A stretch of DNA of 64,000 nucleotides from an uncultured Clostridia bacterium. GTDB lineage: Bacteria > Bacillota > Clostridia > Christensenellales > UBA1242. Shown piece after piece: positions 3-53,695 of the stretch. How positions within the stretch are numbered: the first letter of the stretch is position 1; every line of letters begins with the position of its first letter. The DNA lies in contig CALWTD010000012.1 in NCBI GenBank assembly GCA_944384395.1, forward strand, positions 57,596 to 121,595, given 5' to 3'. The notes under the pieces are model-generated. The model was not told the origin of the DNA and searched no databases. It worked only from the letters and a program-made list of their open reading frames with translations. The translations under genes were made by a program, and so were the position numbers.

Positions 3-104
3 ATTGACCGTATGAACGGATATCTTGCATATAGCAGAGTTAAAGGAGATACAAGATTAAACAGTGCAAAAATGGCAGAAATTAAAGATAGACGGAGTAT
101 GTAA
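3..104 (+). CDS. nrdD: Anaerobic ribonucleoside-triphosphate reductase, C-terminal fragment (gene begins upstream of window)
   Basis: Frame 3 reads IDRMNGYLAYSRVKGDTRLNSAKMAEIKDRRSM*. It contains an RxxGY glycyl-radical-type motif. The stop lies 1 nt before the nrdG ATG. Confidence 0.6.
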   Translation: MDRMNGYLAYSRVKGDTRLNSAKMAEIKDRRSM

Positions 105-105
105 T

Positions 106-594
106 ATGAATTATCACAATATAACAAAAGATGATATGCTAAATGGCGAAGGGCTTAGAGTGGTTTTATGGGTAGCAGGTTGCTCACACCATTGCAAAGG
201 TTGTCATAATCCAATAACATGGGATGCTAGTGGTGGACTAGAATTTGACGAAAGTGCAAAAAATGAGATTTTTGACGAACTTAAAAAAGACTATGTTAGT
301 GGTATCACCTTTTCTGGTGGCGACCCACTCTATAAAGATAATATAAACACCATAACAAATTTAGCAAAAGAAATAAAACAAAAATTTCCACAAAAAACAA
401 TATGGCTTTATACAGGTTATAACTATGAAGACATAAAAGATTTAGAAATACTTAAATATATTGATGTTCTTTGCGATGGAAAATTTGAACTAGATAAAAG
501 AGATGTGAAAGCTCATTGGGTTGGAAGCACAAACCAAAGAGTGATTGATGTTAAAAAAACATTAAAAGAAAATAAAATTGTATTATTTGAATAA
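106..594 (+). CDS. nrdG: Anaerobic RNR activating protein (radical SAM)
   Basis: Contains the CxxxCxxC cluster (GCSHHCKGCHNP) and has typical NrdG length. The track ORF starts at 64, but the ATG at 106 (MNYHNITKDD) directly follows the nrdD stop. Confidence 0.85.
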   Translation: MNYHNITKDDMLNGEGLRVVLWVAGCSHHCKGCHNPITWDASGGLEFDESAKNEIFDELKKDYVSGITFSGGDPLYKDNINTITNLAKEIKQKFPQKTIWLYTGYNYEDIKDLEILKYIDVLCDGKFELDKRDVKAHWVGSTNQRVIDVKKTLKENKIVLFE

Positions 595-706: not shown

Positions 707-1741
707 ATGAATAAGTTATTAGTTGATTGGCAAGCTCTTGGTCAGCAAGCTCTTAATTTTATTGAAACTATTGGTCTTAAACTACTAGAAGTAATTGGCA
801 TTTTTATAGCTGGCTACATTGTTATAAAAATTGTAATAGGGCTTCTTAAAAAAATTTTTACAAAATCTAAAATGTCCAGAGTTACATATAAATTCTTGCT
901 AAGTGTTTTAAAATTTTGTTTATATATGTTACTGCTTTTAGTTATTTGTCAATTTGTTGGAATACCAATAACAGGTTTTATAGCAGTACTTTCAGCAGCA
1001 GGTCTTGCAATTTCTCTTGCAATGCAAGGAAGTTTGTCTAACCTTGCTAACGGAGTTGTAATTATCGGCACTCACCCATTTAAAGAAGGCGACTACATTG
1101 CAATAGACAGTATTGAAGGAACTGTTACCGAAATAAAAATGCTTCACACAATAATTGCAACAACAGACAACAAAGTAATAAGTATACCAAACTCAAAAGT
1201 TGTGGAAAGTTCGCTTATAAATTATAGTGCTAATGCCACAAGAAAAGTTGTTTTTAGTTTTGGTGTAGATTATGCAAGCGATGTTGAACAAGTAAAGAAA
1301 ATTGTTTTAGATGTAATGGTAAATTGCAACAAAGTTCTTTTGGATCCTGCCCCATTTTGTGCCTTAAAAACATTAGATTCAAGTTCAATAACATTTACAG
1401 CAAATTGCTGGTGCTTAAGTAACGATTATTGGGATGTTTACTATTTTGTTATGGAAAATGTGTTTAACGAATTTAAACGAAACAACATCTCCATTCCATA
1501 CGACCAAATGGAAGTAAGACTTAGAAACGATATTGTAGAAATGCCATACAATAAAAAAGCAATGGAAAAAAGAAACGAAGAACTTGCTGTAAAACCTGTT
1601 GAAAATGTTTCCGGCGATGCTATTGATAAAATGCTTTATAAACTCTCTAAAAAAACAAAAGAAAAAAAACTTATAAAAAAACAAGAAAAACAAAAACTTA
1701 AAGAAAAGCAAACAAAAAGCAAAAACAAAGCATCAAAATAA
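707..1741 (+). CDS. Small-conductance mechanosensitive channel (MscS family) with Lys-rich tail
   Basis: N-terminal TM helices followed by an MscS beta-domain pattern (GTVTEIKMLHTIIATTDNKVISIPNSKV). SD is AAAGGAG. Confidence 0.8.
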   Translation: MNKLLVDWQALGQQALNFIETIGLKLLEVIGIFIAGYIVIKIVIGLLKKIFTKSKMSRVTYKFLLSVLKFCLYMLLLLVICQFVGIPITGFIAVLSAAGLAISLAMQGSLSNLANGVVIIGTHPFKEGDYIAIDSIEGTVTEIKMLHTIIATTDNKVISIPNSKVVESSLINYSANATRKVVFSFGVDYASDVEQVKKIVLDVMVNCNKVLLDPAPFCALKTLDSSSITFTANCWCLSNDYWDVYYFVMENVFNEFKRNNISIPYDQMEVRLRNDIVEMPYNKKAMEKRNEELAVKPVENVSGDAIDKMLYKLSKKTKEKKLIKKQEKQKLKEKQTKSKNKASK

Positions 1742-1747
1742 CAAAAA

Positions 1748-1775
1748 AACAAGAAATTTTTCTTGTTTTTTTTAT
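1748..1775 (+). terminator. Terminator after the mscS-like gene
   Basis: AACAAGA-aatttt-TCTTGTT hairpin followed by a T-run. Confidence 0.6.
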
Positions 1776-1898
1776 AAACATTTTTACTTATTTTTCAATA
1801 TAATGTAATGAAATAAAACATTGTTCTATATGTTGTATTTATGTGTTTTTTTATTAAATTTAGTTTATAGTTGAAACTTCTTTTTAGACATTCTTGTA

Positions 1899-1928
1899 TT
1901 GACATAAATTAATTTTTAATGCTATAAT
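1899..1928 (+). promoter_or_regulatory. Sigma-A type promoter of the 1951-4590 operon
   Basis: TTGACA (1899-1904), 18-nt spacer, TATAAT (1923-1928). Confidence 0.55.
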
Positions 1929-1950
1929 AAAACAGAAAATAGAGGTGAAT

Positions 1951-3108
1951 ATGCCAGAAATTTTAAACAAAGTTAAAAACGATGAGAATATAAATTCATA
2001 TCGTCAAAAACAAACATTTTCAAACGATTATGGTGTTAAAACTTGCAATGTTGACTTATCAGACAAATATGACACAGTGGTTCTTGTGTTTATTGGAGAT
2101 TGGCACATTGGATCGGTTGATTTTAACATCGATGAAGCAATGAAAGTTTTAAACTATGTTCTTCAAACTCCAAACGCAAAACTTATTGGTATGGGCGACA
2201 TGATGAATACTGCTATACTAAACAGTGTCAGCAATATGTTTGAAGATATTGCCTATCCACAAGAACAATTAAATGTTTTTGTTTCACTATTAAAACAAGT
2301 TGCAAAACAAGATAAAGTTATTTGGATACATTCAGGAAATCATGAAAGAAGAATTGATAAAAACACAGGTATAAATCCTGTTGAACAAGCAACTCAAGCA
2401 CTTGGAATTCCACATTCATATGCACCATGCTTTGCAGACACATCAATAACATTAAAATGTCCTTACACAAAATCAAAAAAACACACATTCAATCTTGTTA
2501 CTCATCACGGAGATAGTGGAAATCCAGAAACTAACGCATCTGTTAATCAGGAGTCTTTAATAAATGCAATTGGACATAAACACGTATTTCAATCTTCCAT
2601 TAAGTCAAAAATCATCATTGACAAAAATGGCAAACGCGTGAGAAAAGATGAACTCAACATCATTTTACCAGCATCTGGTGGTGGACAATATGGTTATGAA
2701 AAAGGATTAAAACCAATAAGCAAATCTCCATATTATGCTTTGGAAATAACCACAGTTTTAAACCCACTTTATGACAAAAAAAATCTTTATAATATGCAAC
2801 CACCAATTGTTACAGTTACAAAATCCATACCTATTCTTTCTAGTGGTACATATACACTAAAAGACGAATGCGTAAAGGAAAGCGTAAAAATTATTGACAA
2901 AAATATACAAAATATAAAACCAAAAGTTTATGGAAAATTTTTAGAAATTATAGAAATTTTAGAGCAAACAGGTTTGGACATAGACAGAGAAATAAAAGCA
3001 AAAGTTGTTAAACTTATTTTAGATGAAGCAGATAATAAAAAATCACAACATAAAATCAACAATCCACAAAAAATAGAAAGCAACGATTGGTATTATAACA
3101 AAGATTAA
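1951..3108 (+). CDS. Calcineurin-like metallophosphoesterase with all five metal-binding motifs intact
   Basis: Motifs present: GDWHIG (DxH), GMGDMMN (GDxxN), SGNHERR (GNHE), VTHHGD, GHKH. The ATG at 1951 is preceded by AGAGG. The track ORF begins at GTG 1945. Confidence 0.75.
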   Translation: MPEILNKVKNDENINSYRQKQTFSNDYGVKTCNVDLSDKYDTVVLVFIGDWHIGSVDFNIDEAMKVLNYVLQTPNAKLIGMGDMMNTAILNSVSNMFEDIAYPQEQLNVFVSLLKQVAKQDKVIWIHSGNHERRIDKNTGINPVEQATQALGIPHSYAPCFADTSITLKCPYTKSKKHTFNLVTHHGDSGNPETNASVNQESLINAIGHKHVFQSSIKSKIIIDKNGKRVRKDELNIILPASGGGQYGYEKGLKPISKSPYYALEITTVLNPLYDKKNLYNMQPPIVTVTKSIPILSSGTYTLKDECVKESVKIIDKNIQNIKPKVYGKFLEIIEILEQTGLDIDREIKAKVVKLILDEADNKKSQHKINNPQKIESNDWYYNKD

Positions 3109-3124
3109 GGAGTTTTATATAAAT

Positions 3125-4327
3125 ATGGAAGACGGCAAAAGAGCCTTAGATGCCATAGGCAAAAAAATTAAATTAAAAGAAGAAATTGATCAACCTTTTG
3201 ATGAAAACACATTAAAAGACGTTAATTTAGAAATTGAAGAATCAAAAGAAGAACAAACTCAAAAAACAATCGCATTAAAAGTTTTTAGCAAAGACGTTGG
3301 TTTAAATGGTCTTTGTGAACTTAATTTAGGCAAAGCTTACAAACTCACAAATGACGGAAGAAGAGTTAAATATCCATCTTCTTATAAATGTGCAATGAAC
3401 GAAAAATGGTTAGATTACATTATTGAACAAATAAAAAATGCAACAAATCCCGTTGTGATTGTTTCAGATATTTTTACAAGAGTAACAACTGGAAACAATG
3501 AAGATACATTGCCATACAAAGAACAACTTGCATATGGTTATAAAAAATTAAAAGACATAAAAGATAAAATTATTTTGGTTAGAGGTCTTAAAGAAAAAGA
3601 AATAATTGATAATGGTGGACCTGATTTAATGGGTAAACTTGCGAATATGCTTGATATGAAAAACAAACTTGTAAATGCAGGCTTTCATTTAACGCTAAAT
3701 TTAAGTAATCAAAAATCAAAACAGGTTTCACTTCTTCACTACAACGAAAAAATCAACACGGTTCGTTCGCTTGCAATTTCAATGCAAAAATTTGCAAACA
3801 ATAATCCAGGTCACGACATTTATTTTTGTACAACAAGCAAAACAAATTGGTATTCTTGTGGACTTACAACATATGTAACAAAAGATGGTCAAACTGCAAC
3901 AAAACCTTGTTGGTTTATTGCGTTTGGTGGAATGTATGAATTTGACAAAACAAACGAAAAAAGACCCAAAGTTGGAGCATACACTTTAAATAATGACTGG
4001 TTTAAAATAATGATGGACAAAAACAATTTTGTTAGAGCAGATAGAGTTGATTATAGATATCCTCACCCAACAAAGATTGATTCATCAAATTATATAAGTT
4101 CTGTTATAGCAGACACCAAAAGTAACAGTTATAAAGAATTATTTAATGAATTATCTGCATCGCTTGATAAGATGAATGAAAGGCTTTCAAAATCAACATC
4201 AAAACAAATTACTTCTTCAATTCATAAAGCAAAAGAAAAGGCAAAAGAAAAAGAAAACAAAAAAAATATTCAATTTGTTGATCAACGAAAAAACAAAAAA
4301 CAAAATAATGGAGAAGAAAAAGTATGA
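3125..4327 (+). CDS. Hypothetical protein, apparently a degenerate (metal-ligand-less) paralogue of the upstream metallophosphoesterase, with a Lys-rich tail
   Basis: By-eye colinear blocks against the upstream protein: VVIVSDIF vs VLVFIGDWHIG, ILVRGLKEKE vs IHSGNHERR, LLHYNEK vs VTHHGDSG, GHDIYF vs GHKHVF. The catalytic residues are replaced. Confidence 0.45.
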   Translation: MEDGKRALDAIGKKIKLKEEIDQPFDENTLKDVNLEIEESKEEQTQKTIALKVFSKDVGLNGLCELNLGKAYKLTNDGRRVKYPSSYKCAMNEKWLDYIIEQIKNATNPVVIVSDIFTRVTTGNNEDTLPYKEQLAYGYKKLKDIKDKIILVRGLKEKEIIDNGGPDLMGKLANMLDMKNKLVNAGFHLTLNLSNQKSKQVSLLHYNEKINTVRSLAISMQKFANNNPGHDIYFCTTSKTNWYSCGLTTYVTKDGQTATKPCWFIAFGGMYEFDKTNEKRPKVGAYTLNNDWFKIMMDKNNFVRADRVDYRYPHPTKIDSSNYISSVIADTKSNSYKELFNELSASLDKMNERLSKSTSKQITSSIHKAKEKAKEKENKKNIQFVDQRKNKKQNNGEEKV

Positions 4328-4590
4328 TGGAAGGAATAAGAACAGACGGACCAAATATCACTTGCGCAGGATGTGGACAAAAAGTTTCAAAAGACGGAAC
4401 ATTGAAATTAAACTTTTGTCCAAAGTGTGGCAATCCCTTGAACATTGATGCATCAGTAAAATATGAAAAAGCAGTAAATCATGAAAAACTTGTTATGTTA
4501 TATGAACTTATTGACACAATAAACGAAAATAATGAAGACGCAAAAAAAGTAATAAATGATTTTATAAAAGAATTAGAAAACGAAGATTAA
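4324..4590 (+). CDS. Small zinc-ribbon protein (CxxC-X14-CxxC) with acidic helical tail
   Basis: Contains CAGCGQ...CPKCGN. The ATGA start/stop overlap with the upstream gene suggests translational coupling. Confidence 0.6.
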   Translation: MMEGIRTDGPNITCAGCGQKVSKDGTLKLNFCPKCGNPLNIDASVKYEKAVNHEKLVMLYELIDTINENNEDAKKVINDFIKELENED

Positions 4591-4611
4591 ATTTTATTTA
4601 ATTACTACATA

Positions 4612-4697
4612 AAAAAGAACTCTACAAAATGAAGTAAACACCCTAAAGTTGTCTAACTTTTGGGCTTTATTTCAAATAGTAAAGTTCTTTTTTTGTT
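4612..4697. terminator. Nested hairpin between convergent genes (bidirectional terminator candidate)
   Basis: Outer arms are AAAAAGAACTCTAC (4612-4625) and GTAAAGTTCTTTTT (4679-4692). The inner hairpin is CCCTAAAGTT-gtct-AACTTTTGGG (4641-4664). Confidence 0.5.
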
Positions 4698-4738
4698 TTT
4701 TTAAACTATAATTTACAAATTTTTAATTATGTGTAAAA

Positions 4739-5476
4739 TCAAAAATTCATCCTTATTAATTCGTCAAGTTGAGTCAAATACTCCTGTATGGCTTTTTTTG
4801 TTTTTACAATACCATTTTTATAAATGTAATCCGTTGACACTTGAGTATCATAAAAAATTGTATCTTCTATTGATTTTATGTCCATTTCATAACTTAAATT
4901 AAATGATGCCATAAATTTAACTCTATAAGTATCTATTTCGGCAATTGTTATGCTACCTTGTCCCGTTTTTAAATCCCAAATGAAAACATAATGATTATAC
5001 TTATCAACGCGATTATGTTCTAAAATATAAATAGAATTATTATAATTAATTAAATAACCATTTGTTTTAATAACTCCTGTTCCCCCAAGTAGTTTAATTG
5101 CTAAACCACCTGCGTTTGATACTCCAACTTCATGATCTGACACTTCTTCGCCACTTTGATTAACCAATTTACTAAACGCTTCTACATATGTTAAACTTCT
5201 AGCATATAACGATATATCTTCCATAATTTTATTTGAAAAATGAAACTTTTCAGAATAATTTACATCTAAATACCAACCATCAATAACATTTCCTTCTGCA
5301 ACAAAAAAATTGGGATAATTAACATAATCACTTGTTTCTTGAGTTTCTAAATATGCACCATCTAAATAAAATGAAATGTTGAATTTTTGTTCATTGCAAC
5401 CATACATAGAAATTATTGAAAAAAGAAATAACGGCAAAATCAATAATATGTTCTTTATATTTTTAAACTTCAACAT
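4739..5476 (-). CDS. Lipoprotein with a Listeria/Bacteroides-type repeat
   Basis: Lipobox signal peptide MLKFKNIKNILLILPLFLFSIISMYGC. Repeat pattern is ISFYLDG...GWYLDVNYSEKF...SLYA. Start moved to the signal-peptide Met at 5476. Confidence 0.6.
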   Translation of the reverse strand: MLKFKNIKNILLILPLFLFSIISMYGCNEQKFNISFYLDGAYLETQETSDYVNYPNFFVAEGNVIDGWYLDVNYSEKFHFSNKIMEDISLYARSLTYVEAFSKLVNQSGEEVSDHEVGVSNAGGLAIKLLGGTGVIKTNGYLINYNNSIYILEHNRVDKYNHYVFIWDLKTGQGSITIAEIDTYRVKFMASFNLSYEMDIKSIEDTIFYDTQVSTDYIYKNGIVKTKKAIQEYLTQLDELIRMNF

Positions 5477-5921
5477 AACCAGACACCACCCTTTTAACAA
5501 CTGGTCTTGTTGGAGACATAAAAGGTTGCAACGGACCATTTCTCACGAAGAAAAACGAACCATAACCATTTTCACTGATTCTGTTTTGATCTTTTGCTCC
5601 TGTCACACCTATTTCAATCACAAGGTTTACAAAGCGATATTCTCCAAGACTATATGTTTCAACACTATACACATGGTTTACATAATTTGCTATTGTATTA
5701 GAATTATACTTTGTTTTTTCTACACTATAATTAATACCCAAATAACGAGAAATATTATTAACTGTAAGTTGAATTCTTGTTACAGATGATGTATCAGTGT
5801 CACCATCTGTTGAAGTATCATTATTATCACCACACCCAGCAAACAAAAAAACGCAAGAAAATAATAATATCACAGCCAAAAATAAACATAAATATATATT
5901 TTTGTTTTTGATTTTTTCCAT
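5463..5921 (-). CDS. Lipoprotein of unknown function
   Basis: MEKIKNKNIYLCLFLAVILLFSCVFLFAGC lipobox. AAGGAG lies 6 nt upstream of the ATG at 5921. There is a 14-nt overlap with the downstream lipoprotein gene. Confidence 0.6.
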   Translation of the reverse strand: MEKIKNKNIYLCLFLAVILLFSCVFLFAGCGDNNDTSTDGDTDTSSVTRIQLTVNNISRYLGINYSVEKTKYNSNTIANYVNHVYSVETYSLGEYRFVNLVIEIGVTGAKDQNRISENGYGSFFFVRNGPLQPFMSPTRPVVKRVVSGYVEV

Positions 5922-6165
5922 AGACAACTCCTTTATAAATTAACTGATTTGTAAATGTTTAAATCTATTTGACCCTTTTATAATTAAAATCCTAAAAATA
6001 ATGATCTATAAATGAAAATTTAACTAGCAACAACTAAAATATTAATTGTAAGTTTTTTTAATAAAATTTAAAGATAGGATATAATAAATAAAAAAATGGT
6101 TTATAAACAAAATACTATTACTAAAAACGCATTTTTTTATTTTGTTAAATTTAAAATATTTTGTA

Positions 6166-7094: not shown

Positions 7095-7472
7095 TTATTT
7101 TTTATTTATTATAATTACTTCATTGTTAAAATATTTGTTTAATATTTTTATATTATCTTCATCTGTTATTTGTTTTTTACTTTTTTTAATTTCAATATTT
7201 TCATATCCAAAAAATTTAAATGCATTTTGTAATTGTTTATAATTGTCTGTTTCATTTAGCATATCAATAATGCTTTGCTCTGTTGTTTTTATTATAAACT
7301 TGTCATTTTCAATGCTAACATCGGTTATATCTCCACAAACTATGTGCAAAATATTGTTGTTATGCTCTCTTAAATAAACGATTATTTTACCCCAAAGTGT
7401 TCGAGCAGAAAGATTTTTATAATTTGTGGATTTTAGATTTTGTTCCAATTTTACTTGTTTAGTTATAGACAT
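7095..7472 (-). CDS. Separate ORF resembling the C-terminal (tau-specific) domain of Firmicute DnaX, in the -1 frame relative to dnaX
   Basis: LWGKIIVYLREHN..ILHIVCGDITDVSIENDKFIIK...YKQLQNAF..FGYENIEI fits my memory of the DnaX C-terminal pattern (W..vl..l....l.a.l....pv....f.l.f). Its ATG overlaps the dnaX TGA (TGATG). Confidence 0.5.
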   Translation of the reverse strand: MSITKQVKLEQNLKSTNYKNLSARTLWGKIIVYLREHNNNILHIVCGDITDVSIENDKFIIKTTEQSIIDMLNETDNYKQLQNAFKFFGYENIEIKKSKKQITDEDNIKILNKYFNNEVIIINKK

Positions 7473-8658: not shown

Positions 8659-8946
8659 TTAAAATATATAATTTCTTACTATTTCAAATATTAAAGAAAT
8701 CATAATGGTTATAGAAATACAAAATGTTGCTACATTAACAAGTGTTAGTTCTTTGCTGTCCTGCTTGTAACCAAAACAGGCAAATACTACTGCACTTGCA
8801 CCCAAAATAACATTGCCTAAGTTAAAAAGAAGTTTTGCAAGTCCAAACATATAGTAACTCACAAATAAATACATTATCATCGATAATAGTGCAACTCCAA
8901 ATCCAACATAAGTATATATTTTGTTTTCTCTGTTTTTATTATCCAT
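8659..8946 (-). CDS. Small integral membrane protein (3 predicted TM helices)
   Basis: Hydrophobic segments only; no recognisable family. Confidence 0.5.
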   Translation of the reverse strand: MDNKNRENKIYTYVGFGVALLSMIMYLFVSYYMFGLAKLLFNLGNVILGASAVVFACFGYKQDSKELTLVNVATFCISITIMISLIFEIVRNYIF

Positions 8947-9113: not shown

Positions 9114-9857
9114 GTGGGAAAATTTGTAGAACTGCAAAACTATGATGTTGTAAAATATGAAGCACTAACAGATAAACCCTTTAGAAAAATACTTGCACTT
9201 GAACATATTTTGAAATTTTATAAATTTCAATATTTTGGACCTGTTAAAAGTAATGAAACATTTTATGATACGCCAAACGATATTTTATATAAAGCAGGTA
9301 TTGTTCTTTCAAGAATTCAAGAAGATGATAGAGTATTTTTTAAAGTAGGACAAGCATCAACCTTAAAAGCAAAAACACAAAAAGTATTTTCTCATAAAGT
9401 TGGCGTAAAAGACACAATTAAAGACCACTCATTTTATTTGGTGGACGGAATAAAAAGCATATTTTCAACACCTATATATATTGACCTAGAAAATGTTATA
9501 AAAAATGCAGTCCCAAAAGTTTCTATTTTTATAAACGCAAATGCGTATAAAGTTATTAGTGGTTCAGGGTTTAGAGCATATATGTGTCTTGAAGATATAA
9601 GATATGAAAATTATGAAACAAAGCGTCAACACAAATCAAACGGCATGACGGTTAAACTTGCAGGCCCCAACCAATATTTGCCAGAATTTAAGTCGTTTAA
9701 TGATTCAATAAAAAAATATTGCAAAGAATTTATTGAGGTTCATGACAATATATACGAACACGCAAAAATATTAACCAAAAAGGTTGATGCAAAACAAGTT
9801 AAAATTGATAAGAAGAAAGCAAAAGAAAAAATTGCAAATGCAGAAATAAAAGATTAA
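9114..9857 (+). CDS. CYTH-like (triphosphate tunnel metalloenzyme) domain protein
   Basis: Pattern ETFYDTPNDILYKAGIVLSRIQ resembles the CYTH YFDTP...lRiR motif. GTG start 5 nt after AGGAGG. Confidence 0.45.
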   Translation: MGKFVELQNYDVVKYEALTDKPFRKILALEHILKFYKFQYFGPVKSNETFYDTPNDILYKAGIVLSRIQEDDRVFFKVGQASTLKAKTQKVFSHKVGVKDTIKDHSFYLVDGIKSIFSTPIYIDLENVIKNAVPKVSIFINANAYKVISGSGFRAYMCLEDIRYENYETKRQHKSNGMTVKLAGPNQYLPEFKSFNDSIKKYCKEFIEVHDNIYEHAKILTKKVDAKQVKIDKKKAKEKIANAEIKD

Positions 9858-10464: not shown

Positions 10465-11301
10465 TTATTTTGCTATATATAGCACTCCAAGAGTTTTTCT
10501 TCCACAATGTGTGCTAATTGTTGCACATGCACTGCTTTCCAAAACTTCTTCAAATCCATAATCTTTTAACATTTGCAAAAGTTTTGTTCGTGTTGGTTCA
10601 ACAGGACTTGAATAGGTTACAAAAACTCTTTTTTTGTTTGGTGGAATTTCTTTTAATAGATCATCAGCATATTTCATAAGAGCATCTTCAATGTTTCCAC
10701 GATATTTTTTTGTTACTTGCATTTTACCATCAACCAAACTTATTCGTGGCTTAATTTTTAACACATTTGCACCTAAAAGCGCAATGCCTGAACATCTTCC
10801 ACCTTTATGCAAAAATCGAAGAGTGTCAAGAAGAAACGATGCTTGTACTTTGTTTGCTTCTTCTTCAAGTTCTTTTACTATTGTTTTAATGTCCTTGCCT
10901 TCTTTAAGTTTATCCACGCAAGAAAGTGCCAAAAGCCCTGAGCCACTTGATAAACTTTTTGTGTCAATAACATAAACATTATTTACTTCGTTGCTTGCAA
11001 GACGCGCATTATTGCCTGTTGAACTTATGGCAAATGAAAGCGAAAAATGAATAACTGCGTCATATTGTTGTCTTAATTTTTTAAAATATTCAGTATATTC
11101 ATAAACATTTACAGCAGAAGTTTTTGGAAGTTCATTTGTTTTGTCCACAAAATTGAATATATCTTCTGGTGTAACATCAATGCCGTCATGGTGCTCTTCT
11201 GTTCCAAGCATTATTGTTATTGGCATTAAATGAATATCATATTTTTCTAATAAATCTTTTGGAATGTCACAAGTACTATCACAAGATATACATATTTTCA
11301 T
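10465..11301 (-). CDS. DegV family fatty-acid-binding protein
   Basis: Typical DegV N-terminus (I.cDStcDiPkd...) and length (278 aa). Confidence 0.85.
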   Translation of the reverse strand: MKICISCDSTCDIPKDLLEKYDIHLMPITIMLGTEEHHDGIDVTPEDIFNFVDKTNELPKTSAVNVYEYTEYFKKLRQQYDAVIHFSLSFAISSTGNNARLASNEVNNVYVIDTKSLSSGSGLLALSCVDKLKEGKDIKTIVKELEEEANKVQASFLLDTLRFLHKGGRCSGIALLGANVLKIKPRISLVDGKMQVTKKYRGNIEDALMKYADDLLKEIPPNKKRVFVTYSSPVEPTRTKLLQMLKDYGFEEVLESSACATISTHCGRKTLGVLYIAK

Positions 11302-11311
11302 ATAACTCTCC

Positions 11312-12148
11312 TTATTTTGCTAAATACATTACTCCAAGAGTACCTTTTCCACAATGAATGCAGATTGATGGTCCTGCTTGTGCTTCTATTATCTCTTCAA
11401 ATCCATAATCTTTTAATTTTTTTATTATTTTGTCTTTTGCTTCAAGTGGCGAAGAATAAACAACAAATGCTAGTTTTTTATCAGGTGGAACTTCTTTTAA
11501 AATGTCATCACAATATTTAATTAAACAATTATTTATACTGCCTAAATATTTTTTTGTAACTTCCATTTTTCCGTTTATAACGCTTATTCTAGGCTTTATA
11601 CTTAAAATTTTTGAACCGATTAGTGCAACTCCACTGCATCGTCCACCTTTGTGCAAATATTTAAGTGTGTCAATTAAAAATGATGTTTGAACCTTTGTTT
11701 TTAATTCTTCAATTTTATTAATTATTTCTTGAACCGAAAAGCCTTGCTCACGAAGTTTACAACATTCTAAAATTAACAATGATATTCCACACGAAAGATT
11801 TTGACTATCTATTGTGTAAACATTTTCCATGTTTTCACTTGCTCTTCTTGCGTTGAGTCCTGTTGAAGAAATCTCCCAAGAAAAAGAAAAATGTATAACG
11901 GCGTCGTAATTTTCTTTAATTTTTTTAAAGTGCTCTGTGTATTCATATTCATTAAAAGCAGAAGTTGTTGGAAGTTTTCCAGTTTTTTCCACATAATCAA
12001 AAACATCTTGACTTGTTCCTGTTACTCCATCGTGTCTTAAATCGTTTTCGCCAAGTGAAAATGGCATTGCATTTATTCTTATATCATATTTATCAATAAA
12101 TTCTTTTGGTAAATCACAAGTACTATCAGCACTTATTCCTATTCTCAT
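11312..12148 (-). CDS. DegV family fatty-acid-binding protein (tandem paralogue)
   Basis: Colinear with the 10465-11301 product (for example AVIHFS, LHKGGRCSG). Confidence 0.85.
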   Translation of the reverse strand: MRIGISADSTCDLPKEFIDKYDIRINAMPFSLGENDLRHDGVTGTSQDVFDYVEKTGKLPTTSAFNEYEYTEHFKKIKENYDAVIHFSFSWEISSTGLNARRASENMENVYTIDSQNLSCGISLLILECCKLREQGFSVQEIINKIEELKTKVQTSFLIDTLKYLHKGGRCSGVALIGSKILSIKPRISVINGKMEVTKKYLGSINNCLIKYCDDILKEVPPDKKLAFVVYSSPLEAKDKIIKKLKDYGFEEIIEAQAGPSICIHCGKGTLGVMYLAK

Positions 12149-12198: not shown

Positions 12199-12228
12199 TT
12201 GCACGCAAAATTGCATGTATGCTATAAT
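12199..12228 (+). promoter_or_regulatory. Promoter of radC; the -10 box lies 6 nt before the ATG
   Basis: TTGCAC (12199-12204), 18-nt spacer, TATAAT (12223-12228), then ctaagc and ATG at 12235. No SD. Confidence 0.5.
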
Positions 12229-12234
12229 CTAAGC

Positions 12235-12939
12235 ATGGAAAATGCAAAAGAGAAACACGAGCATTATGGTCATCGAAAAAGACTTAGAAACTTAATAGAT
12301 ATGGCAGGTTTTGATGCTTTAAGTGAAGTTCAGGTTGTTGAACAAATTTTAACAATGACACACGCAAGATGCGATACAAATGTTATCGCTCACAAGCTTC
12401 TAAATGAATTTGGTTCTCTTTCAAAAATATTAGATGCTGATGCATATGATTTAATGCAAATAGATGGTGTTGGCGAAGTAACGGCAAAAACAATAACCTA
12501 TCTTCCACAAATTTTTGATTTATACTTAAAAGATAAAAACTCCAAAAAATATAATTTTAAAACATACAAAGATATTTATAACTTTTTTAAACCTATTTTT
12601 GATATGTATGCCTGCGAATGTGTGGTTGTTGGTTTTATAAGCAACAATAACACATTTTCTGGCTATAAAAAATTAGCCGATGGCGAACTTTGTGAAGTAA
12701 AAATAAACAAGGTTGAATTTTCTAGATCTATTATGAGAAACAAAGCAAAAGCAGTTATGATTGCTCATAATCATCCTTTTGGTAAAGCAAATCCATCGTC
12801 AAAAGATTATGACGCAAACGAAAAGCTTGCAATTATTTTGGAAAATCTTGGAATTGTTATGGTTGACAATATTATAATTGGAGAAGATGGACTTTTTTCG
12901 TTTAAAAACAATATTTTGTTTCCAAAAAATGACTTATAA
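12235..12939 (+). CDS. radC: RadC-like JAB-domain protein (UPF0758)
   Basis: N-terminal GHRKRLR, HhH motif, JAMM-like HNHPFG...PSSKD. Start moved from 12199 to MENAKEKHEHYGHRKRL. Confidence 0.85.
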   Translation: MENAKEKHEHYGHRKRLRNLIDMAGFDALSEVQVVEQILTMTHARCDTNVIAHKLLNEFGSLSKILDADAYDLMQIDGVGEVTAKTITYLPQIFDLYLKDKNSKKYNFKTYKDIYNFFKPIFDMYACECVVVGFISNNNTFSGYKKLADGELCEVKINKVEFSRSIMRNKAKAVMIAHNHPFGKANPSSKDYDANEKLAIILENLGIVMVDNIIIGEDGLFSFKNNILFPKNDL

Positions 12940-15619: not shown

Positions 15620-16330
15620 ATGCTAGAAATAAAAAACTTAACAAAAACTTATGGAACAAAAAAAGCAGTTGATAATTTATCATTAACTGTTAAAGATGGA
15701 GAACTTTGTGCCTTTATAGGCAAAAACGGTGCTGGTAAAACCACAACAATTAAATGTGTTTGTGGAATTATAGATTTTGACAATGGGGAAATTATTGTCA
15801 ACGGAAAAAATATTAAACAAGAGCCACTCGATGCAAAACAAACATTTGCCTATATTCCAGACAATCCAAGTATGTATGATTTTATGACTGCAATATCATA
15901 TCTCAATTTTGTTTGTGACATATATAAAGTTAATAAAAAAGACAGAAGAGAAAGAATAGAAATGTATGCATCATTGTTTGAAATTAAAGAAAATTTAGGG
16001 CAAGAAATTTCGTCATTTTCGCATGGCATGAAACAAAAACTTGCAATCATTTCTGCACTCGTGCACAATCCAAAATTAATAATACTAGACGAACCTTTTG
16101 TTGGCCTTGACCCAACAAGCACACATAAACTTAAAAATATTATGAAAGATTTAACAAAACTAGGTGTTTCTATTTTCTTTTCAACACACATATTAGAAGT
16201 TGCAGAAAAACTTTGTGACCATGTGATTATTTTAAACGACGGAAAAATAGTAAAGCAAGGCACAATGAAAGAAGTTTTGGGAGATGAAAGCCTTGAAAAT
16301 ATCTTTTTGGAGCTTAATGAAAATGAATAA
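15620..16330 (+). CDS. ABC transporter ATP-binding protein
   Basis: Walker A (GKNGAGKTT), signature (FSHGMKQK), Walker B (LIILDEP). The ATG at 15620 follows GGGGGA. Confidence 0.9.
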   Translation: MLEIKNLTKTYGTKKAVDNLSLTVKDGELCAFIGKNGAGKTTTIKCVCGIIDFDNGEIIVNGKNIKQEPLDAKQTFAYIPDNPSMYDFMTAISYLNFVCDIYKVNKKDRRERIEMYASLFEIKENLGQEISSFSHGMKQKLAIISALVHNPKLIILDEPFVGLDPTSTHKLKNIMKDLTKLGVSIFFSTHILEVAEKLCDHVIILNDGKIVKQGTMKEVLGDESLENIFLELNENE

Positions 16331-17882
16331 TATTTTTGCACTTATTAAATTAAATTTTTTATCAGCAATAAATCCAGCAAACAAAAGACAATCTAAATTA
16401 AATAAATTTTTAATTGTTTTTGCACTTTTATTTTTGCTAGGTTTTTCCACTTTTTATGCCTATTCGTTTATAATGGTTTTTAAAGAAAGCAATTTAAATA
16501 ACTATGAATTTTTAATTGCTTTTTCAATTTTGGCAAGTAATTTTTTTGTTATATTTTTGTTTTTTAGTTCATGTACTAATGTTTTATACAAAAGCAAAGA
16601 CAACGACACTCTTTTTAGTATGCCAATAAAAAAGAGTACAATAATACTTTCAAAACTAATCAGCATTTTACTTTTAGGATATGTATACCAATTTATTTTT
16701 GTTGTGCCTTTTACTGTAATTTATTATATTTACAATGGTTTTAATTTTTTAAGTTTTTTATGCTTTTTATTCGGTTTTTTTGTTGAACCAATTGTTCCAC
16801 TTTGTTTAAGTTGTTTAATCACTTGTTTTTTTAGTTTTATCACAAAAAAGATAAAATATAAAAATTTATTCTCCACTTTGGCACTATTTATATTTTTTGG
16901 TCTATTTATGTATTTTTATATGCAAATAAATGTTTACGATTTAATGGCAAATCCAAACTCAACAAACTTTATAAATTATCTTCCTTGGATAAATTGGTTA
17001 TATGTTTCAATAACACAAAACAATTTATTATTCCTATTATATAATATTGTACTTGCTTTTTTACTTAGTGTGTTTATTTACTTTTTTGTTTATATAACAT
17101 TTTTTAAATTGTGTACCGAACTAAATTCTTCTATCTCATCGAAGTCAAAAATCTATTACAAAAACAAACCCGTTTTTGTTTCACTTTTAAACAAAGAGCG
17201 CAAAAAATATTTTTCAAGTCCAATGTATGTGTTTAACACTCTTTTTGCATATTTAATTTTACTCGGTGCTTGCATATATTTTGCAGTTGACAAGTCTTTA
17301 ATAAACAGTCTTAAAGAAATAATTCAAATAAGCTCGTTTACTCTTTGTGTCGCTTTTATAACAATGTGCTTTTTTATACTTTCTACTGCAAATATATCTG
17401 CTGTATCAATTTCGATGGAAAGACAGAGTTTTAGTTTATTAAAAGGTATGCCTTTGTCTTTTAGTCAAATAATATGGAGTAAAATTTTATTTGCATTTTT
17501 GGTTGGTTTACCTTTTATTTTAGTTTCTTCAATAATTTTTGCAATTAGTTATAATATTTCTTTTTGGTTATTTTTGATGATTGTTGCTTGTTGTATATTT
17601 TACAATTTGTTTATTTGTATGTTTGGTATTGTGATGAATATTTGTTTTCCAAACTTAACAACACAAAATGATACAGTACTTGTTAAACAATCATTGAGTT
17701 CATTTTTGTCAATTTTAATTCCATTAGTTTTTGTTATGATTGCAACAACGATATATTTTAACATCAGTTTAAATTTAGGTTATTATTTTCTAATTATTAT
17801 TTCTATTTTAATTGTTTTATTTTTAATTCTATTATATTTTATTATTTTTATAGCAAAGAAAAAATTGCAAAAAATAATTTAA
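16317..17882 (+). CDS. Polytopic membrane protein, putative ABC-2 type permease partner
   Basis: More than 10 hydrophobic segments. Its start overlaps the ATPase stop. No specific motif recognised. Confidence 0.55.
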   Translation: MKMNNIFALIKLNFLSAINPANKRQSKLNKFLIVFALLFLLGFSTFYAYSFIMVFKESNLNNYEFLIAFSILASNFFVIFLFFSSCTNVLYKSKDNDTLFSMPIKKSTIILSKLISILLLGYVYQFIFVVPFTVIYYIYNGFNFLSFLCFLFGFFVEPIVPLCLSCLITCFFSFITKKIKYKNLFSTLALFIFFGLFMYFYMQINVYDLMANPNSTNFINYLPWINWLYVSITQNNLLFLLYNIVLAFLLSVFIYFFVYITFFKLCTELNSSISSKSKIYYKNKPVFVSLLNKERKKYFSSPMYVFNTLFAYLILLGACIYFAVDKSLINSLKEIIQISSFTLCVAFITMCFFILSTANISAVSISMERQSFSLLKGMPLSFSQIIWSKILFAFLVGLPFILVSSIIFAISYNISFWLFLMIVACCIFYNLFICMFGIVMNICFPNLTTQNDTVLVKQSLSSFLSILIPLVFVMIATTIYFNISLNLGYYFLIIISILIVLFLILLYFIIFIAKKKLQKII

Positions 17883-19107: not shown

Positions 19108-19602
19108 CTATCTTTCCATTGTATCTTCGTTTTTTATTCTATATTCGTTTACAATTTTTAATTTTTTTGTTCTAAGTATTCCGTCTTTAATTTGTCTAAT
19201 GTTAAAAACTGCACTTTCTTGGTTTGCTGATATAGAAATTGACAAGTTCTTACCCAAAATTTGTTTTATATCCTTACCTAAATAATCAATAGCATTTCTT
19301 TCAATAAGCATTCCAAATTCTTTTTCGTTGTCATCATAATTATAGTCGGAATCGTAGTGAAAATAACCATTTTTTAATATTTCATCTGCAAAACTATCCA
19401 TTAAATAATCTCTGAAATCTTCTAACTTGTTTTCAAATTTTTTAAATTCTGCTTTGTCATATGTTGGCATTTCGCCTTTTAAATTATTTTTATTGGTATC
19501 AATTAGCATATCTCTATATCTTTCTCTCAATCTGTATGTAAGTTCAACAACCATATCCTGAATATAATTTGATTCTATAAAATTCACTTTATAATTAACC
19601 AT
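19108..19602 (-). CDS. Hypothetical protein
   Basis: ORF with coding-like composition, adjacent to the downstream glycosyltransferase (1-nt gap). No motif recognised. Confidence 0.5.
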   Translation of the reverse strand: MVNYKVNFIESNYIQDMVVELTYRLRERYRDMLIDTNKNNLKGEMPTYDKAEFKKFENKLEDFRDYLMDSFADEILKNGYFHYDSDYNYDDNEKEFGMLIERNAIDYLGKDIKQILGKNLSISISANQESAVFNIRQIKDGILRTKKLKIVNEYRIKNEDTMER

Positions 19603-40857: not shown

Positions 40858-40934
40858 TGGTGGAGATTATCGGAATCGAACCGATGACCTCCTGCTTGCA
40901 AGGCAGGCGCTCTAGCCAGCTGAGCTAAACCCCC
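40858..40934 (-). tRNA. tRNA-Ala (anticodon UGC), CCA encoded
   Basis: The minus strand reads GGGGGTTTAGCTCAGCTGGCTAGAGCGCCTGCCTTGCAAGGCAGGAGGTCATCGGTTCGATTCCGATAATCTCCACCA. It folds as a cloverleaf with anticodon loop CTTGCAA and the G3:U70 Ala identity pair. Confidence 0.95.
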
Positions 40935-47977: not shown

Positions 47978-48010
47978 CACATTCTATAAAATTTCTAGAA
48001 TGTGTTTTTT
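47978..48010 (+). terminator. Terminator of the 46829-47896 gene
   Basis: CACATTCTA-N9-TAGAATGTG hairpin followed by T6. Confidence 0.75.
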
Positions 48011-48022
48011 ATTAAAATAATA

Positions 48023-48685
48023 TTATTGAAACAAATTATAACCCATTGTTTTTACAACATAAATAGCTCCTTCATTAAAAACATTTATAAGAGAAGACGA
48101 ATTAACTTGTTCATAAAGTATTTGTTCAAATCCTTCAAACTCCATTAAGGATATAATAACAAAACACATCACGCAAACAATCATAACGCCCTTTAAAAAT
48201 CCAAAACATAATCCACAAAAACGGTCAAATGAACCTAAAATAAAAAAGTTTTTTAAATATGTGGAAAGTTTTTTAGCAAACGCCTTTAACATTCCTTTAA
48301 TTATAATAGCAAGCACAACAAAAGATACTATATTGATAATAAAATGAGTTACTGTTTGATATAGTGTTTGTTCGTTTATATGCAAAAAAAATTTAATCAT
48401 AAGAAGTAGTTTGCTATCACTATTAACAAAATTGTTTAGTATTGTAATATCTTTAACCAATGAGCCAACTTTGCTATCTATTTTAAATAATAAATTTAAC
48501 AAGTCAACAAAATATGGTAATAATAAATAAGTAAAATAAATAGAAAGAACAAAACAAAGTATAGAAAATAAAGAAATAAGCATTCCTTTTTTAAAGCCAA
48601 TAGCAGAAAAGATACATAATAATGAAATGATTACTATATCAATTATCACTTCATAATTATTACATAAATTAATATTTTTATTCAT
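48023..48685 (-). CDS. CvpA-like membrane protein
   Basis: Four to five TM helices and a CvpA-like N-terminus (DIVIISLLCIFSAIGFKKGML). Confidence 0.4.
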   Translation of the reverse strand: MNKNINLCNNYEVIIDIVIISLLCIFSAIGFKKGMLISLFSILCFVLSIYFTYLLLPYFVDLLNLLFKIDSKVGSLVKDITILNNFVNSDSKLLLMIKFFLHINEQTLYQTVTHFIINIVSFVVLAIIIKGMLKAFAKKLSTYLKNFFILGSFDRFCGLCFGFLKGVMIVCVMCFVIISLMEFEGFEQILYEQVNSSSLINVFNEGAIYVVKTMGYNLFQ

Positions 48686-48997
48686 ATATCAAAAAAAATT
48701 TTCTTATAATATAAATACTATAAACTGTGTTTTTTGCTTAAAAATGGGTATTAAAAAATCTTAATTATAAAGCATTTTTATACACTTTTTTGAACACTTA
48801 CTTATTTGTACCAATTTTTTGCTCTTATAATCCATTTTTTTATTTTATATACAATTTTTTTGTTGTTCTTATAAAAAATTAAAATCAAATTTTATAATTA
48901 TAATATAAACATGGATATAACAAAAAAGTAAATTTTTAATTTTTTATTTAATAAGTAAATAATATATATGTTTGTTTAACATTTTATATTTTAAATT

Positions 48998-49571
48998 TGT
49001 TTCACATGAAACATTTTAAAACAATAAATATAAATATCAAAAAATTTTTAAAAATAAGAAAACTTTTTAAACACTATTTCAATTTTTACATTAAATAATT
49101 ATGATATTTTTTATATGCTTTGTTTTTTTTATGTTTCACGTGAAACAAAAACAAAAAAATTAGACAAAATATACTATACGCATAAAATTTTATTATAAAT
49201 AAAACGATTTTAAATTTATTATTTTTGCCAAAAATGTTTCATGTGAAACATTTTTGTGAAAGAAAATAAAAGAATATTTAAAACAACCACCTTTTATTTA
49301 CATAATATAATCTATATTAAATATTTAACCAAAAGACTATCATTTGCTATAAAGTTCTGAATATGTTTCACGTGAAACATAATTTAATTATTAAAAAGCT
49401 TTATATATTGTGCTTGTTAATATCTATATCAATCAATTCTATATTAAAACATACAAAAATGTTTCATGTGATACAATTTTAACTTTAAATCTCCTTTTTT
49501 GTTGTTTTGTTATATACTTATATGATTATAGAGAATATAATATGAAATATGTTTTTGTTTCACGTGAAACA
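48998..49571. repeat. Array of six parS (ParB-binding) 16-bp palindromes
   Basis: Three perfect TGTTTCACGTGAAACA sites at 49132-49147, 49364-49379 and 49556-49571. One-mismatch sites at 48998-49013 (CACATG) and 49235-49250 (CATGTG). Two-mismatch site at 49460-49475. Spacings are 134, 103, 129, 96 and 96 bp. Confidence 0.85.
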
Positions 49572-49583
49572 AATAAAATCTAG

Positions 49584-49701
49584 TTATACACAAAGTTATC
49601 CACATTTTTGTTTAAAAATGTGGATAACTAACTGTTTTATACCTATTTTTTGTGTTTTAGATTCTGTTTTTAATAAGTTTTTATCTTTTTATTGTGGATA
49701 A
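49584..49701. promoter_or_regulatory. DnaA-box cluster next to the parS array
   Basis: TTATACACA at 49584-49592 (one mismatch). Perfect TTATCCACA at 49596-49604 and TGTGGATAA at 49619-49627 form a 16-bp inverted repeat (AGTTATCCACATTTTT / AAAAATGTGGATAACT). Perfect TGTGGATAA at 49693-49701. Confidence 0.75.
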
Positions 49702-49750
49702 CTTTATTATAAAATAAAAAAAACATATCTTATTTGATATGTTTTATGTT

Positions 49751-50728
49751 TTATTGTACATGCTTTTTATTATATTCGCTTAAATCTTTTAATGTTAATG
49801 TTTTTGTTTTTAAAAGTTCAAGAAGTTCTGCAATTCTATCTAAATCATCTCTTGAATAATAATCTATATATATTCTACCTTTTCTATCGCTTCCAATTGC
49901 TGAAACTTTTGTTGCAAAAACTCTTTGCATTTCATTTATAAGTTCTTTTAGTTCTAAACTTTGCTCAGGTGGTGTGTTTTTTGTGCTTGCTTTTGGATTT
50001 AAATATTGTTTTACTAATTTTTCAAGTTCTCTTACTGTTATTTTGCCATCACACGCTGCCATTGCAAATTTGTATTGTGCTTTTGCATCATTAATAACAA
50101 CTAAACATCTTGCGTGTCCTGCTGTTAGTTTGTTTTGTTCTACAAGACTAATAACTTCTGGACATAAAGACAATAATCTTAATGTGTTTGCTATATTTGG
50201 TCTACTTATACCAATTCTATCAGCAACAGTTTCTTGTGTAAAATTATATTCTTCCATAAGTTGTTTTATTGCTCTGGCTGCTTCAATTGGATTTAAGTCT
50301 TCTCTTTGCAAGTTTTCAATTATCGAAATTTCTTTTATTTGTCTTTCTGTATAATTCTTTACAACACAAGGCACAGTATCAAGTCCTGCTATTTTACTTG
50401 CACGCCATCTTCTTTCTCCGGCAATAATCATGTATCCGTTTTCTTCTTTGTTTACAACAATAGGTTGTATTACGCCATGTGTTTTAATCGAAGTTGCTAA
50501 TTCATTTAATGCTTCTTCATTAAAGTTCTTTCTTGGTTGGTTAGGATTTGCATGTATAAGTTTTATATCTATTTCATTTACTCCACTTTCTTTTTTAGAT
50601 TTTATTATTTCATTTGATAATGCAGGGGAGTTGTTTTGTTCTTCTTTATTCAATCCTTCAACTTCTTCATCATATATTGATAACAATGCACCTAATCCTT
50701 TACCCAATCCCATTTTCTTTTGAACCAT
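49751..50728 (-). CDS. parB: Chromosome partitioning protein ParB/Spo0J
   Basis: QPRK, GERRWRA, and HTH motifs. Located downstream of parA. Confidence 0.95.
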   Translation of the reverse strand: MVQKKMGLGKGLGALLSIYDEEVEGLNKEEQNNSPALSNEIIKSKKESGVNEIDIKLIHANPNQPRKNFNEEALNELATSIKTHGVIQPIVVNKEENGYMIIAGERRWRASKIAGLDTVPCVVKNYTERQIKEISIIENLQREDLNPIEAARAIKQLMEEYNFTQETVADRIGISRPNIANTLRLLSLCPEVISLVEQNKLTAGHARCLVVINDAKAQYKFAMAACDGKITVRELEKLVKQYLNPKASTKNTPPEQSLELKELINEMQRVFATKVSAIGSDRKGRIYIDYYSRDDLDRIAELLELLKTKTLTLKDLSEYNKKHVQ

Positions 50729-50730
50729 TT

Positions 50731-51546: not shown

Positions 51547-51731
51547 TACAACCTCTAAATTTTAACATTTCTTATTATATATAAGATTATAACATAATAA
51601 TACAATAAAAATCAATAATTTTAAATATTAAACGATTTAAGCAAGTATTGACACAATAAAAAAAAAGAATTAAACTATACATAGTTAATATTAAATATAA
51701 ATATATAAATTATCAAAATAAGGAACAAAAA

Positions 51732-52898: not shown

Positions 52899-52901
52899 CA
52901 A

Positions 52902-52928
52902 AAAACTCACAAAAATGTGAGTTTTTTT
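52902..52928 (+). terminator. Terminator of the 51732-52898 gene
   Basis: AAAACTCACA-aaaa-TGTGAGTTTT hairpin followed by Ts. Confidence 0.8.
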
Positions 52929-52983
52929 GATTTTTTCTATATTTTTTTATATTTTATTGTGTTTTTTATAGAATTTTTATATT

Positions 52984-53685: not shown

Positions 53686-53695
53686 ATTTTTCCTT

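Follow-up and report, generated by a model that had tools for sequence, protein, structure and literature searches.

We describe a chromosomal operon of three genes in a 64,000-nucleotide stretch of DNA (contig CALWTD010000012.1 of assembly GCA_944384395.1, hereafter the window) from an uncultured Clostridia bacterium. The operon encodes a metallophosphoesterase (MPE) predicted to be catalytically competent, a degenerate paralogue of it predicted to be catalytically dead, and a small zinc-ribbon protein. The trio is confirmed as a real, strongly conserved operon of uncultured gut Clostridia, in which the active and the dead paralogue are inherited together under purifying selection. We propose, with a probability of roughly 0.45, that its products form a constitutive heteromeric nuclease or phosphodiesterase complex, similar to DP1 and Mre11, that acts in DNA or nucleotide metabolism. 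A first-pass annotation, made from the sequence alone, had noticed the three genes and could assign them to no characterised pathway, and we likewise found no homology to one. The features of the operon are as follows.

1899-1928, plus strand: sigma-70/sigma-A consensus promoter, TTGACA, 18-nt spacer, TG-n-TATAAT
1941-1947, plus strand: Shine-Dalgarno sequence AGAGGTG of gene 1, read from the sequence
1951-3108, plus strand: gene 1, 385 aa, predicted catalytically competent calcineurin-like MPE
3125-4327, plus strand: gene 2, 400 aa, degenerate, predicted catalytically dead MPE paralogue
4324-4590, plus strand: gene 3, 88 aa, four-Cys zinc ribbon with an acidic helical tail
4597-4705, no strand assigned: nested long hairpin from RNA folding, probable bidirectional intrinsic terminator

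Organization and conservation of the operon

The three tightly packed open reading frames (ORFs) were confirmed at the coordinates listed above. For gene 1 the ORF listing reaches back to a GTG at 1945, and database orthologues begin at the ATG; the Shine-Dalgarno sequence before it (GAGGTG or GGGGG) is kept at the same position across orthologous loci. Genes 2 and 3 overlap through ATGA, and the same 4-nt overlap is found in most orthologous loci. Two alternative-frame ORFs across the gene 2/3 junction, at 4176-4448 on the plus strand and 4209-4445 on the minus strand, were rejected as spurious since both conservation and the ratio of nonsynonymous to synonymous substitution rates (dN/dS) fit the frames of genes 2 and 3.

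The operon has its own promoter, as the first-pass annotation had claimed. The TTGACA-18-TATAAT element at 1899-1928 matches the consensus at 12 of 12 positions, is the sole such match in 1500-5200 and carries an extended -10 TG, and the start codon of gene 1 lies 22 nt past the end of the -10 element. A promoter matching at 11-12 of 12 positions stands 20-23 nt 5' of gene 1 in 10 of 16 loci and at 9-40 nt in 4 further loci, including the distant lineages L018, L020 and L022. Such conservation is unusual for a non-coding element. The retained near-consensus promoter and the very short leader suggest that transcription is strong and constitutive. At the other end, nucleotides 4588-4705 fold into a nested hairpin with a free energy of -29.4 kcal/mol (z = -5.42), and 0 of 200 shuffled sequences were as stable. 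The hairpin is bracketed by an A-run and a T-run, and the convergent downstream gene ends there; it is probably a bidirectional intrinsic terminator common to the operon and this gene, in line with the nested convergent terminator annotated before. A simple terminator scan overlooked it because of its long loop. An Rfam scan showed no riboswitch or other RNA element near the operon, its sole match being a tRNA at 40861-40934.

Among GTDB species representatives, 12 genomes carry the three genes in this order, all of them from uncultured Clostridia and labelled Christensenella sp., UBA1242 or Ca. Caccopulliclostridium. The trio was also found in further metagenomic lineages, giving a total of ~10 deep lineages in which gene 2 identity falls to ~20%. 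Every related species genome recovered contains the trio, and the gene order is the same in all recovered loci that have gene 3. The hosts are Christensenellales-like uncultured gut Clostridia, ~28% GC and spore formers. Mean identity is 0.50 for each of the three proteins, their pairwise distances are correlated (r = 0.98 between genes 1 and 2), and dN/dS ranges from 0.01 to 0.10 across genes 1, 2 and 3.

Gene 1 is predicted to be a catalytically competent metallophosphoesterase

Gene 1 carries all five MPE motifs that had been read from it at first pass: GDWHIG, GDMMN, GNHE, HHGD and GHKH. Their conservation was scored on an alignment of 26 family members, and a motif table was compiled over 10 lineages. 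Motifs I-III and HHGD are invariant in 26/26 aligned sequences; in motif V (GHxH) this holds for the Gly and the second His, while conservation of the first His, which is D in protein P0061, is 90% or higher. Across the 10 lineages the motifs are retained, the exception being a change of the motif V Gly to Phe in L020. With dN/dS of 0.04-0.065 the gene is under strong constraint. Gene 1 is a member of the MPE superfamily and, judged from its conserved residues, catalytically competent.

The protein from the window has no match to the Pfam model PF00149 (Metallophos), and the orthologues of L018 and L020 pass this model with 27.9 and 24.0 bits against a cut-off of 21.5. The window protein matches the PHROG family phrog_7339 (expect value, E, 2.3e-29; profile positions 4-201 of 263), which orthologues of all types match with E values of 1e-16 to 1e-28. 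The name of this family, 'DNA repair exonuclease', is an annotation by similarity and not a tested function. The best NCBIfam match is the PolD small subunit NF003118, at 8e-5, although its 21.8 bits fall far short of the cut-off of 445. Searches of PDB sequences with the family profiles of genes 1 and 2 found nothing.

The AlphaFold2 model of gene 1 has a predicted local distance difference test score (pLDDT) of 76.6. In a Foldseek search of the PDB its significant matches are almost all MPEs, with probabilities (Prob) up to 1.0, and the top folds are PolD DP1, LpxH and Mre11; Rv0805, a phosphodiesterase of cyclic nucleoside monophosphates, is also found. The model consists of an MPE core (~40-240), a beta 'cap' (261-293) and long C-terminal helices (302-361). 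One homologue from JGI, protein P0059, is labelled LpxH (UDP-2,3-diacylglucosamine pyrophosphatase). We rejected this label for the family, as no NCBIfam or Pfam LpxH model is matched and the likeness is at fold level only. In a Gram-positive spore former such a name very likely results from erroneous automatic annotation, and the spore-forming Clostridia hosts presumably lack lipid A.

Gene 2 is probably an ancient inactivated paralogue under equal constraint

Gene 2 has no match in Pfam, PHROGs, NCBIfam, PADLOC, the PDB sequences or the phage collection, and direct BLASTP between genes 1 and 2 shows no similarity (E at least 4). Comparison of the two families by hhalign gives a weak match (Prob 16%, E 0.0015) that is colinear over 164 columns. 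Their homology was shown through an intermediate. When 1.84 billion representative proteins were searched exhaustively with the gene 2 profile in HMMER, 30 proteins were returned, comprising the close family, distant degenerate proteins of 360-480 aa and small Pfam-positive active MPEs of ~270 aa, the last at library-wide E values of 1e-5 to 1e-3. In hhalign this small active MPE family matches the gene 1 family with Prob 99.9% and E 6e-33 and the gene 2 family with Prob 99.0% and E 3e-18. In addition, a divergent gene 2 orthologue of the branch that we call type B (locus L061) matches phrog_7339 with E 2e-11. The relationship of gene 2 to gene 1, proposed from their colinear appearance, is borne out by these shared strong matches and by the fold of gene 2. 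In a cluster look-up every distant relative of gene 2 was an unnamed metagenomic protein, and a metagenome scan with divergent gene 2 sequences yielded 5 loci, 1 of them informative.

The AlphaFold2 model of gene 2 (pLDDT 74) matches MPE folds only in the PDB, among them Vps29, SMPDL3A, Pol delta p50 and PP1. Its matches to phage MPEs in BFVD are much better than those in the PDB (E 4e-12, template modelling score, TM, up to 0.67). In the protein, the MPE-like core (~48-310) lies between a conserved helix at the N terminus and a long one at the C terminus (321-377).

The metal ligands of gene 2 are lost in all lineages. The D and H of motif I are replaced by E/N/G/H-x-N/D/Q and the N-H of motif III by L-K/T-I/T-D and similar residues, each in 10 of 10 lineages; motifs IV and V are also gone in the clade of the window, and the type B branch retains GD, DHG and one His. 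The substitutions first mapped to motifs II-IV were placed correctly. That of motif V was not: profile alignments show that the counterpart of GHKH is C-T-T-S-K (residues 235-239), that is TTSK and not GHDIYF, and D231-I-Y aligns with the 'DIY' that precedes GHxH in active relatives. A long Lys-rich tail had also been singled out. It is lineage-specific, and the last 60 residues are acidic (pI ~5) in about half of the clade; the tail was therefore dismissed as a nucleic-acid-binding feature.

The dN/dS of gene 2 is 0.046-0.065, compared with 0.042-0.065 for gene 1 in the same analysis. Since the two are equal, gene 2 is not decaying. Its best-conserved blocks, NLGK, FTRVTTGN..LPY.EQL, RG..E and D.Y..T..K, coincide with the sites of the former motifs, an indication that a binding pocket has been kept. 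Taken together, the lost ligands and a dN/dS of ~0.05 agree with the pseudo-enzyme suggested at first pass, and gene 2 is best read as a genuine, anciently inactivated MPE paralogue of gene 1.

A side observation concerns the annotation of this gene in locus L061 (5811-7028), where the public call of the dead-MPE gene reads through an in-frame TGA. Under translation table 11 the gene stops at 7004 with an ATGA overlap with the zinc-ribbon gene, and the read-through is probably a gene-calling artefact rather than recoding.

Gene 3 is a zinc-ribbon protein encoded next to the dead paralogue

The 88-aa CxxC...CxxC zinc ribbon, its ATGA coupling and its acidic tail were all confirmed. The four cysteines (C14xxC17...C32xxC35) are invariant, a GxPL turn is conserved, and the acidic helical tail (pI ~4.5) is kept in all lineages. 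A profile search found 76 relatives of 77-112 aa. Contexts were examined for 7 of these 76, and in 8 of 8 contexts gene 3 lies directly 3' of a dead-MPE gene; upstream of that, 7 of the 8 have a complete active MPE gene, and in L074 the contig end truncates it. Among PDB sequences the matches of gene 3 (RPB12, eL37, Trm1) were all non-significant and of the generic zinc-ribbon kind, and no polymerase C-terminal domain was among them. The families defined by genes 2 and 3 lack a solved structure and are not represented by any model in Pfam, NCBIfam or PHROG.

The trio is not a recognisable phage or defence module

The first-pass annotation had likened the operon to phage-defence or phage-derived cassettes. 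Such a system, in which an MPE effector nuclease is restrained by the dead paralogue and the zinc-ribbon protein, or a domesticated phage or prophage module, would account for the independent promoter and terminator of the cassette. It would also fit the sequence neighbourhood of the catalytic domain, whose closest outgroup is phrog_7339 from Marinitoga, Bacillus, Moorella and Eggerthella phages (22-40% identity), and the fact that the best structural matches of gene 2 are phage MPEs. The phage enzymes share with genes 1 and 2 a loop after motif II (S....YEQ or PxEQ) and a C-terminal GGY...Y.P motif. They are, however, solitary single-domain genes in varied modules, in contrast to the chromosomal pair of active and dead MPE with a zinc-ribbon gene. 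The MPE proteins of the window exceed them in length by 120-140 aa and have extensions at the N terminus as well as long helices at the C terminus; the phage enzymes lack the beta region and the two long C-terminal helices of gene 1.

Searches of viral collections pointed in the same direction. Gene 1 has only distant relatives there, solitary MPE genes of ~260 aa with 24-41% identity. In Marinitoga MPV1, Bacillus Slash/Edson and Eggerthella EL753P1 the genes around them form no recurring module and include no dead partner. The gene 2 family is absent from 50,697 phage genomes searched by tblastn and from 2.9 million viral contigs (IMG/VR) scanned by pattern. In PADLOC-DB v2 genes 1 and 2 have no match, and the best value of gene 3 is a non-significant E of 0.047, with PDC-M14A. 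Degradation of host DNA has been reported for one phage MPE (PMC12287305), an activity that would suit an effector; no mycobacteriophage is found among the phage matches of gene 1, so this case is an analogy only.

The genomic setting also argues against a mobile element. Cassette GC is 0.30, which we take as equal to the genome background of ~0.28; synteny is kept within the genus between housekeeping flanks; and the trio, present in all related species genomes recovered and evolving uniformly under strong purifying selection, lacks the patchy distribution that is typical of defence islands. A single defence-like neighbourhood was seen, in L074 (GCA_947623775.1, 5511-8678), where an AAA ATPase gene and a gene with a TIR_2 domain lie a few genes 3' of the trio. 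A defence or prophage origin is not supported, and the trio is neither a phage island nor a known defence system; we consider this origin improbable. The term 'phage-derived' holds only insofar as the catalytic domain has solitary phage MPEs as its sister group.

Similarity to DP1, Mre11 and other MPE-fold proteins

Dedicated pseudoenzyme partners are well known among kinases, proteases and the eukaryotic MPE-fold proteins Vps29 and the polymerase B-subunits. When the profile of the small active MPE family was searched against the PDB, six archaeal PolD DP1 sequences came first, with E values of 1e-6 to 1e-4, followed by SbcD at 0.12. DP1 is the nearest solved relative of the catalytic subfamily by sequence and the top Foldseek match of gene 1 (TM ~0.35). 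It is an Mre11-like 3'-5' exonuclease whose eukaryotic descendants, the polymerase B-subunits such as Pol delta p50, have been inactivated. In DP1 and the B-subunits a zinc-binding module and helical bundle of the partner dock onto the phosphodiesterase domain (PMC6355029). Gene 3 has the same composition, a zinc ribbon with helices, as this docked module. The parallel is an analogy in architecture; polymerase C-terminal domains share no sequence similarity with the gene 3 profile. DP1 and the B-subunits also pair with DP2 or a B-family polymerase, whereas the bacterial operon contains no polymerase gene.

Mre11 and SbcD share the layout of gene 1, with a common MPE core followed by a beta 'cap' and a C-terminal extension resembling a helix-loop-helix. 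The Foldseek matches of the gene 1 model to Mre11 have Prob 0.95-1.0 but root-mean-square deviations of 9-13 A. Similarity in sequence is marginal: the SbcD value of 0.12 comes from a sister-family profile, and gene 1 matches no Pfam or NCBIfam SbcD/Mre11 model. Both proteins work as dimers, and a dimer from the trio would differ in being a heterodimer with one dead site. For gene 2 the top PDB match is Vps29 of the retromer (5w8m, Prob 1.0), although the TM of its matches, 0.25-0.46, is low. Vps29 keeps the MPE fold, has lost the metal ligands and acts via protein-protein contacts. As a eukaryotic trafficking protein of ~190 aa without an active paralogue partner, it is linked to gene 2 only through the superfamily.

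These comparisons are the basis of the mechanism that we favour. The trio would be a self-contained, constitutively transcribed operon for a cytoplasmic heteromeric phosphoesterase. Gene 1 would supply the only catalytic subunit, with a binuclear-metal MPE active site, and gene 2 would most likely pair with it as a pseudo-dimer, in the manner of Mre11/SbcD homodimers, and contribute substrate binding, positioning or regulation. Gene 3, made stoichiometrically through translational coupling, may serve as an adaptor or regulatory subunit. The relatives DP1 and SbcD/Mre11, together with the DNA and nucleotide theme of the neighbourhood set out below, suggest a nucleic-acid phosphodiester as the most likely substrate, in DNA or RNA end processing or exonucleolytic trimming tied to replication or repair. 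We infer the physical complex, the role of gene 3 and the nucleic-acid substrate from these parallels.

A bolder extension, which we regard as a long shot, takes the analogy with DP1 literally. Here the trio would be the bacterial counterpart of the DP1/B-subunit module and would attach to the replisome or a repair machine as an accessory factor for proofreading or end trimming. Gene 1 would be a DP1-like exonuclease, gene 2 an inactivated B-subunit-like paralogue and gene 3 a free-standing docking peptide of zinc ribbon plus helix, equivalent to the zinc-containing C-terminal domain of polymerase catalytic subunits. If so, MPE inactivation in this operon would be independent of, or related to, the step that yielded the eukaryotic B-subunits, and the trio would offer a bacterial and phage window on the origin of the DP1/B-subunit lineage.

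Genomic neighbourhood and alternative functions

The window opens with the anaerobic ribonucleotide reductase genes and a channel gene, which precede the operon.

3-101, plus strand: 3' end of nrdD (class III ribonucleotide reductase), at the window opening
64-594, plus strand: nrdG, after nrdD
707-1741, plus strand: MscS-type channel gene, after nrdG
4739-5927, minus strand: two overlapping putative lipoprotein/surface-protein genes between the operon and recR, one matching Flg_new (Listeria-Bacteroides repeat)

Within the genus of the window the flanks are syntenic, with nrdD-nrdG-mscS upstream and recR-ybaB-dnaX downstream, whereas more distant species have wholly different flanks. The lipoprotein pair is found in L006 and L008, whereas in L007, L009 and L010 it is missing and recR comes straight after gene 3; the pair looks like a recent insertion into the intergenic region. 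Further flanking genes of the window are housekeeping (SpoIIE, UvrC, RmuC, GlmS, DnaX, RecR). Across lineages nrdD-nrdG lies at most 2 genes from the trio in three deep lineages and in three different arrangements. A Rel/SpoT-like gene with HD_4 and TGS domains directly follows the trio in L012 and L014 and comes one gene later in L013, L015 and L017, and an HD+TGS Rel/SpoT-like gene stands just upstream of nrdD in L006 and L008. In L065 a DnaQ-like RNase_T gene starts 22 nt past gene 3, and in L074 a NUDIX gene neighbours the trio. The theme of the neighbourhood is DNA or nucleotide (deoxynucleoside triphosphate, dNTP) metabolism, although most lineages lack nrd, Rel-like or NUDIX neighbours.

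Separately, we note that the HD_4+TGS protein has 479 aa and is encoded at 9199-10638 in L012 (11 nt past gene 3) and at about 9467-10894 in L014 (10 nt), and after a helix-turn-helix gene in L013, L015 and L017. No RelA_SpoT synthetase domain was detected between its two domains, and it may be a hydrolase-only or degenerate Rel homologue.

The same neighbours could be read in favour of a phosphodiesterase or pyrophosphatase of the nucleotide pool or of signalling, with the dead paralogue as a ligand-sensing regulatory subunit. Its substrates would be (d)NTP-derived compounds, dinucleoside polyphosphates, cyclic or linear (oligo)nucleotides or alarmone-related molecules. The recurrence of nrdD-nrdG in three arrangements, the Rel/SpoT-like genes near the trio or nrdD and the NUDIX neighbour all fit such a role, as do the folds of LpxH, a nucleotide-sugar pyrophosphatase, and Rv0805 among the gene 1 matches and the conserved pseudo-active site of gene 2, which suits ligand binding. 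However, the nearest characterised relatives by sequence are nucleases, DP1 and then SbcD, and these neighbours are missing from most lineages. Regulation does not connect the two sets of genes either: in several related loci nrdD has probable NrdR boxes in front of it, such as ACACAATATATTGTAT in L063 and L072, whereas none was found in the trio promoters that were checked. On balance we hold this function to be unlikely, while giving it real weight.

Several observations weigh against the nuclease complex that we prefer. Fold matches to LpxH and Rv0805, enzymes of small-molecule pyrophosphates and cyclic nucleotides, are as good as those to nucleases. The sequence similarity to DP1 spans motifs I-III only, and DP1 has an N-terminal OB (oligonucleotide/oligosaccharide-binding) fold, in place of which the gene 1 and gene 2 models have only a helix and short strands before the core. 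No SbcC/Rad50-like ATPase is encoded in the operon or its flanks in ~10 lineages, nor in the annotated 38 kb of the window. In the distant lineages L018 and L020 the enzyme pair occurs without gene 3, so gene 3 is not obligatory. Finally, because NrdR boxes are confined to nrdD, the nrd link is one of adjacency and could be residual ancestral synteny.

A further alternative is that gene 1 is a protein phosphatase like those of the phosphoprotein phosphatase (PPP) family, or another non-nucleotide phosphoesterase, for example of the cell envelope or sporulation, with gene 2 as a targeting subunit. PP1 and PP5 are indeed among the fold matches, but rank below the nuclease and LpxH matches. Motif II reads GD[ML][ML]N without the PPP-type GDxVDRG signature, and no Pfam or NCBIfam phosphatase model was matched. 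The hosts form spores, and spoIIP, spoIIGA-sigE-sigG and spoIIE occur in some neighbourhoods, but inconsistently between lineages. We judge this alternative very improbable indeed.

A literature search found no matching operon of active and dead MPEs, no bacterial MPE heterodimer and no link between nrdD and an MPE; nor did it find a described bacterial operon that combines an active MPE, an inactivated and equally constrained paralogue and a translationally coupled zinc-ribbon protein. Gene 1 represents a branch of the phage-type MPE family whose nearest characterised relative is the PolD proofreading exonuclease. As a nuclease, the trio would add a DNA or RNA end-processing activity to the poorly known uncultured gut Clostridia; acting on nucleotides, it would be a new regulator next to anaerobic ribonucleotide reductase. 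The restricted phylogenetic range and the lack of a phenotype limit its general impact, and it offers a clean, small and tractable system for studying what a dead MPE subunit contributes.

Other features of the window

Further downstream the window contains a group of genes of other families.

10465-12148, minus strand: two tandem DegV-family (fatty-acid-binding) paralogues of 278 aa each, adjoining the RadC-like JAB gene
12199-12939, strand not stated: RadC-like JAB gene, adjoining the DegV paralogues

GC content in 48001-54000 is 0.20-0.22 compared with ~0.28 elsewhere. Conserved ORFs that have no Pfam match lie at 7095-7472 (minus strand), 9114-9857 (plus), 16284-17882 (plus) and 19108-19602 (minus), and a small ORF at 8659-8946 (minus) is conserved in L006-L008. 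One conserved ORF of this Pfam-less kind is a 125-aa gene between ybaB and dnaX, with 67-91% identity across the genus.

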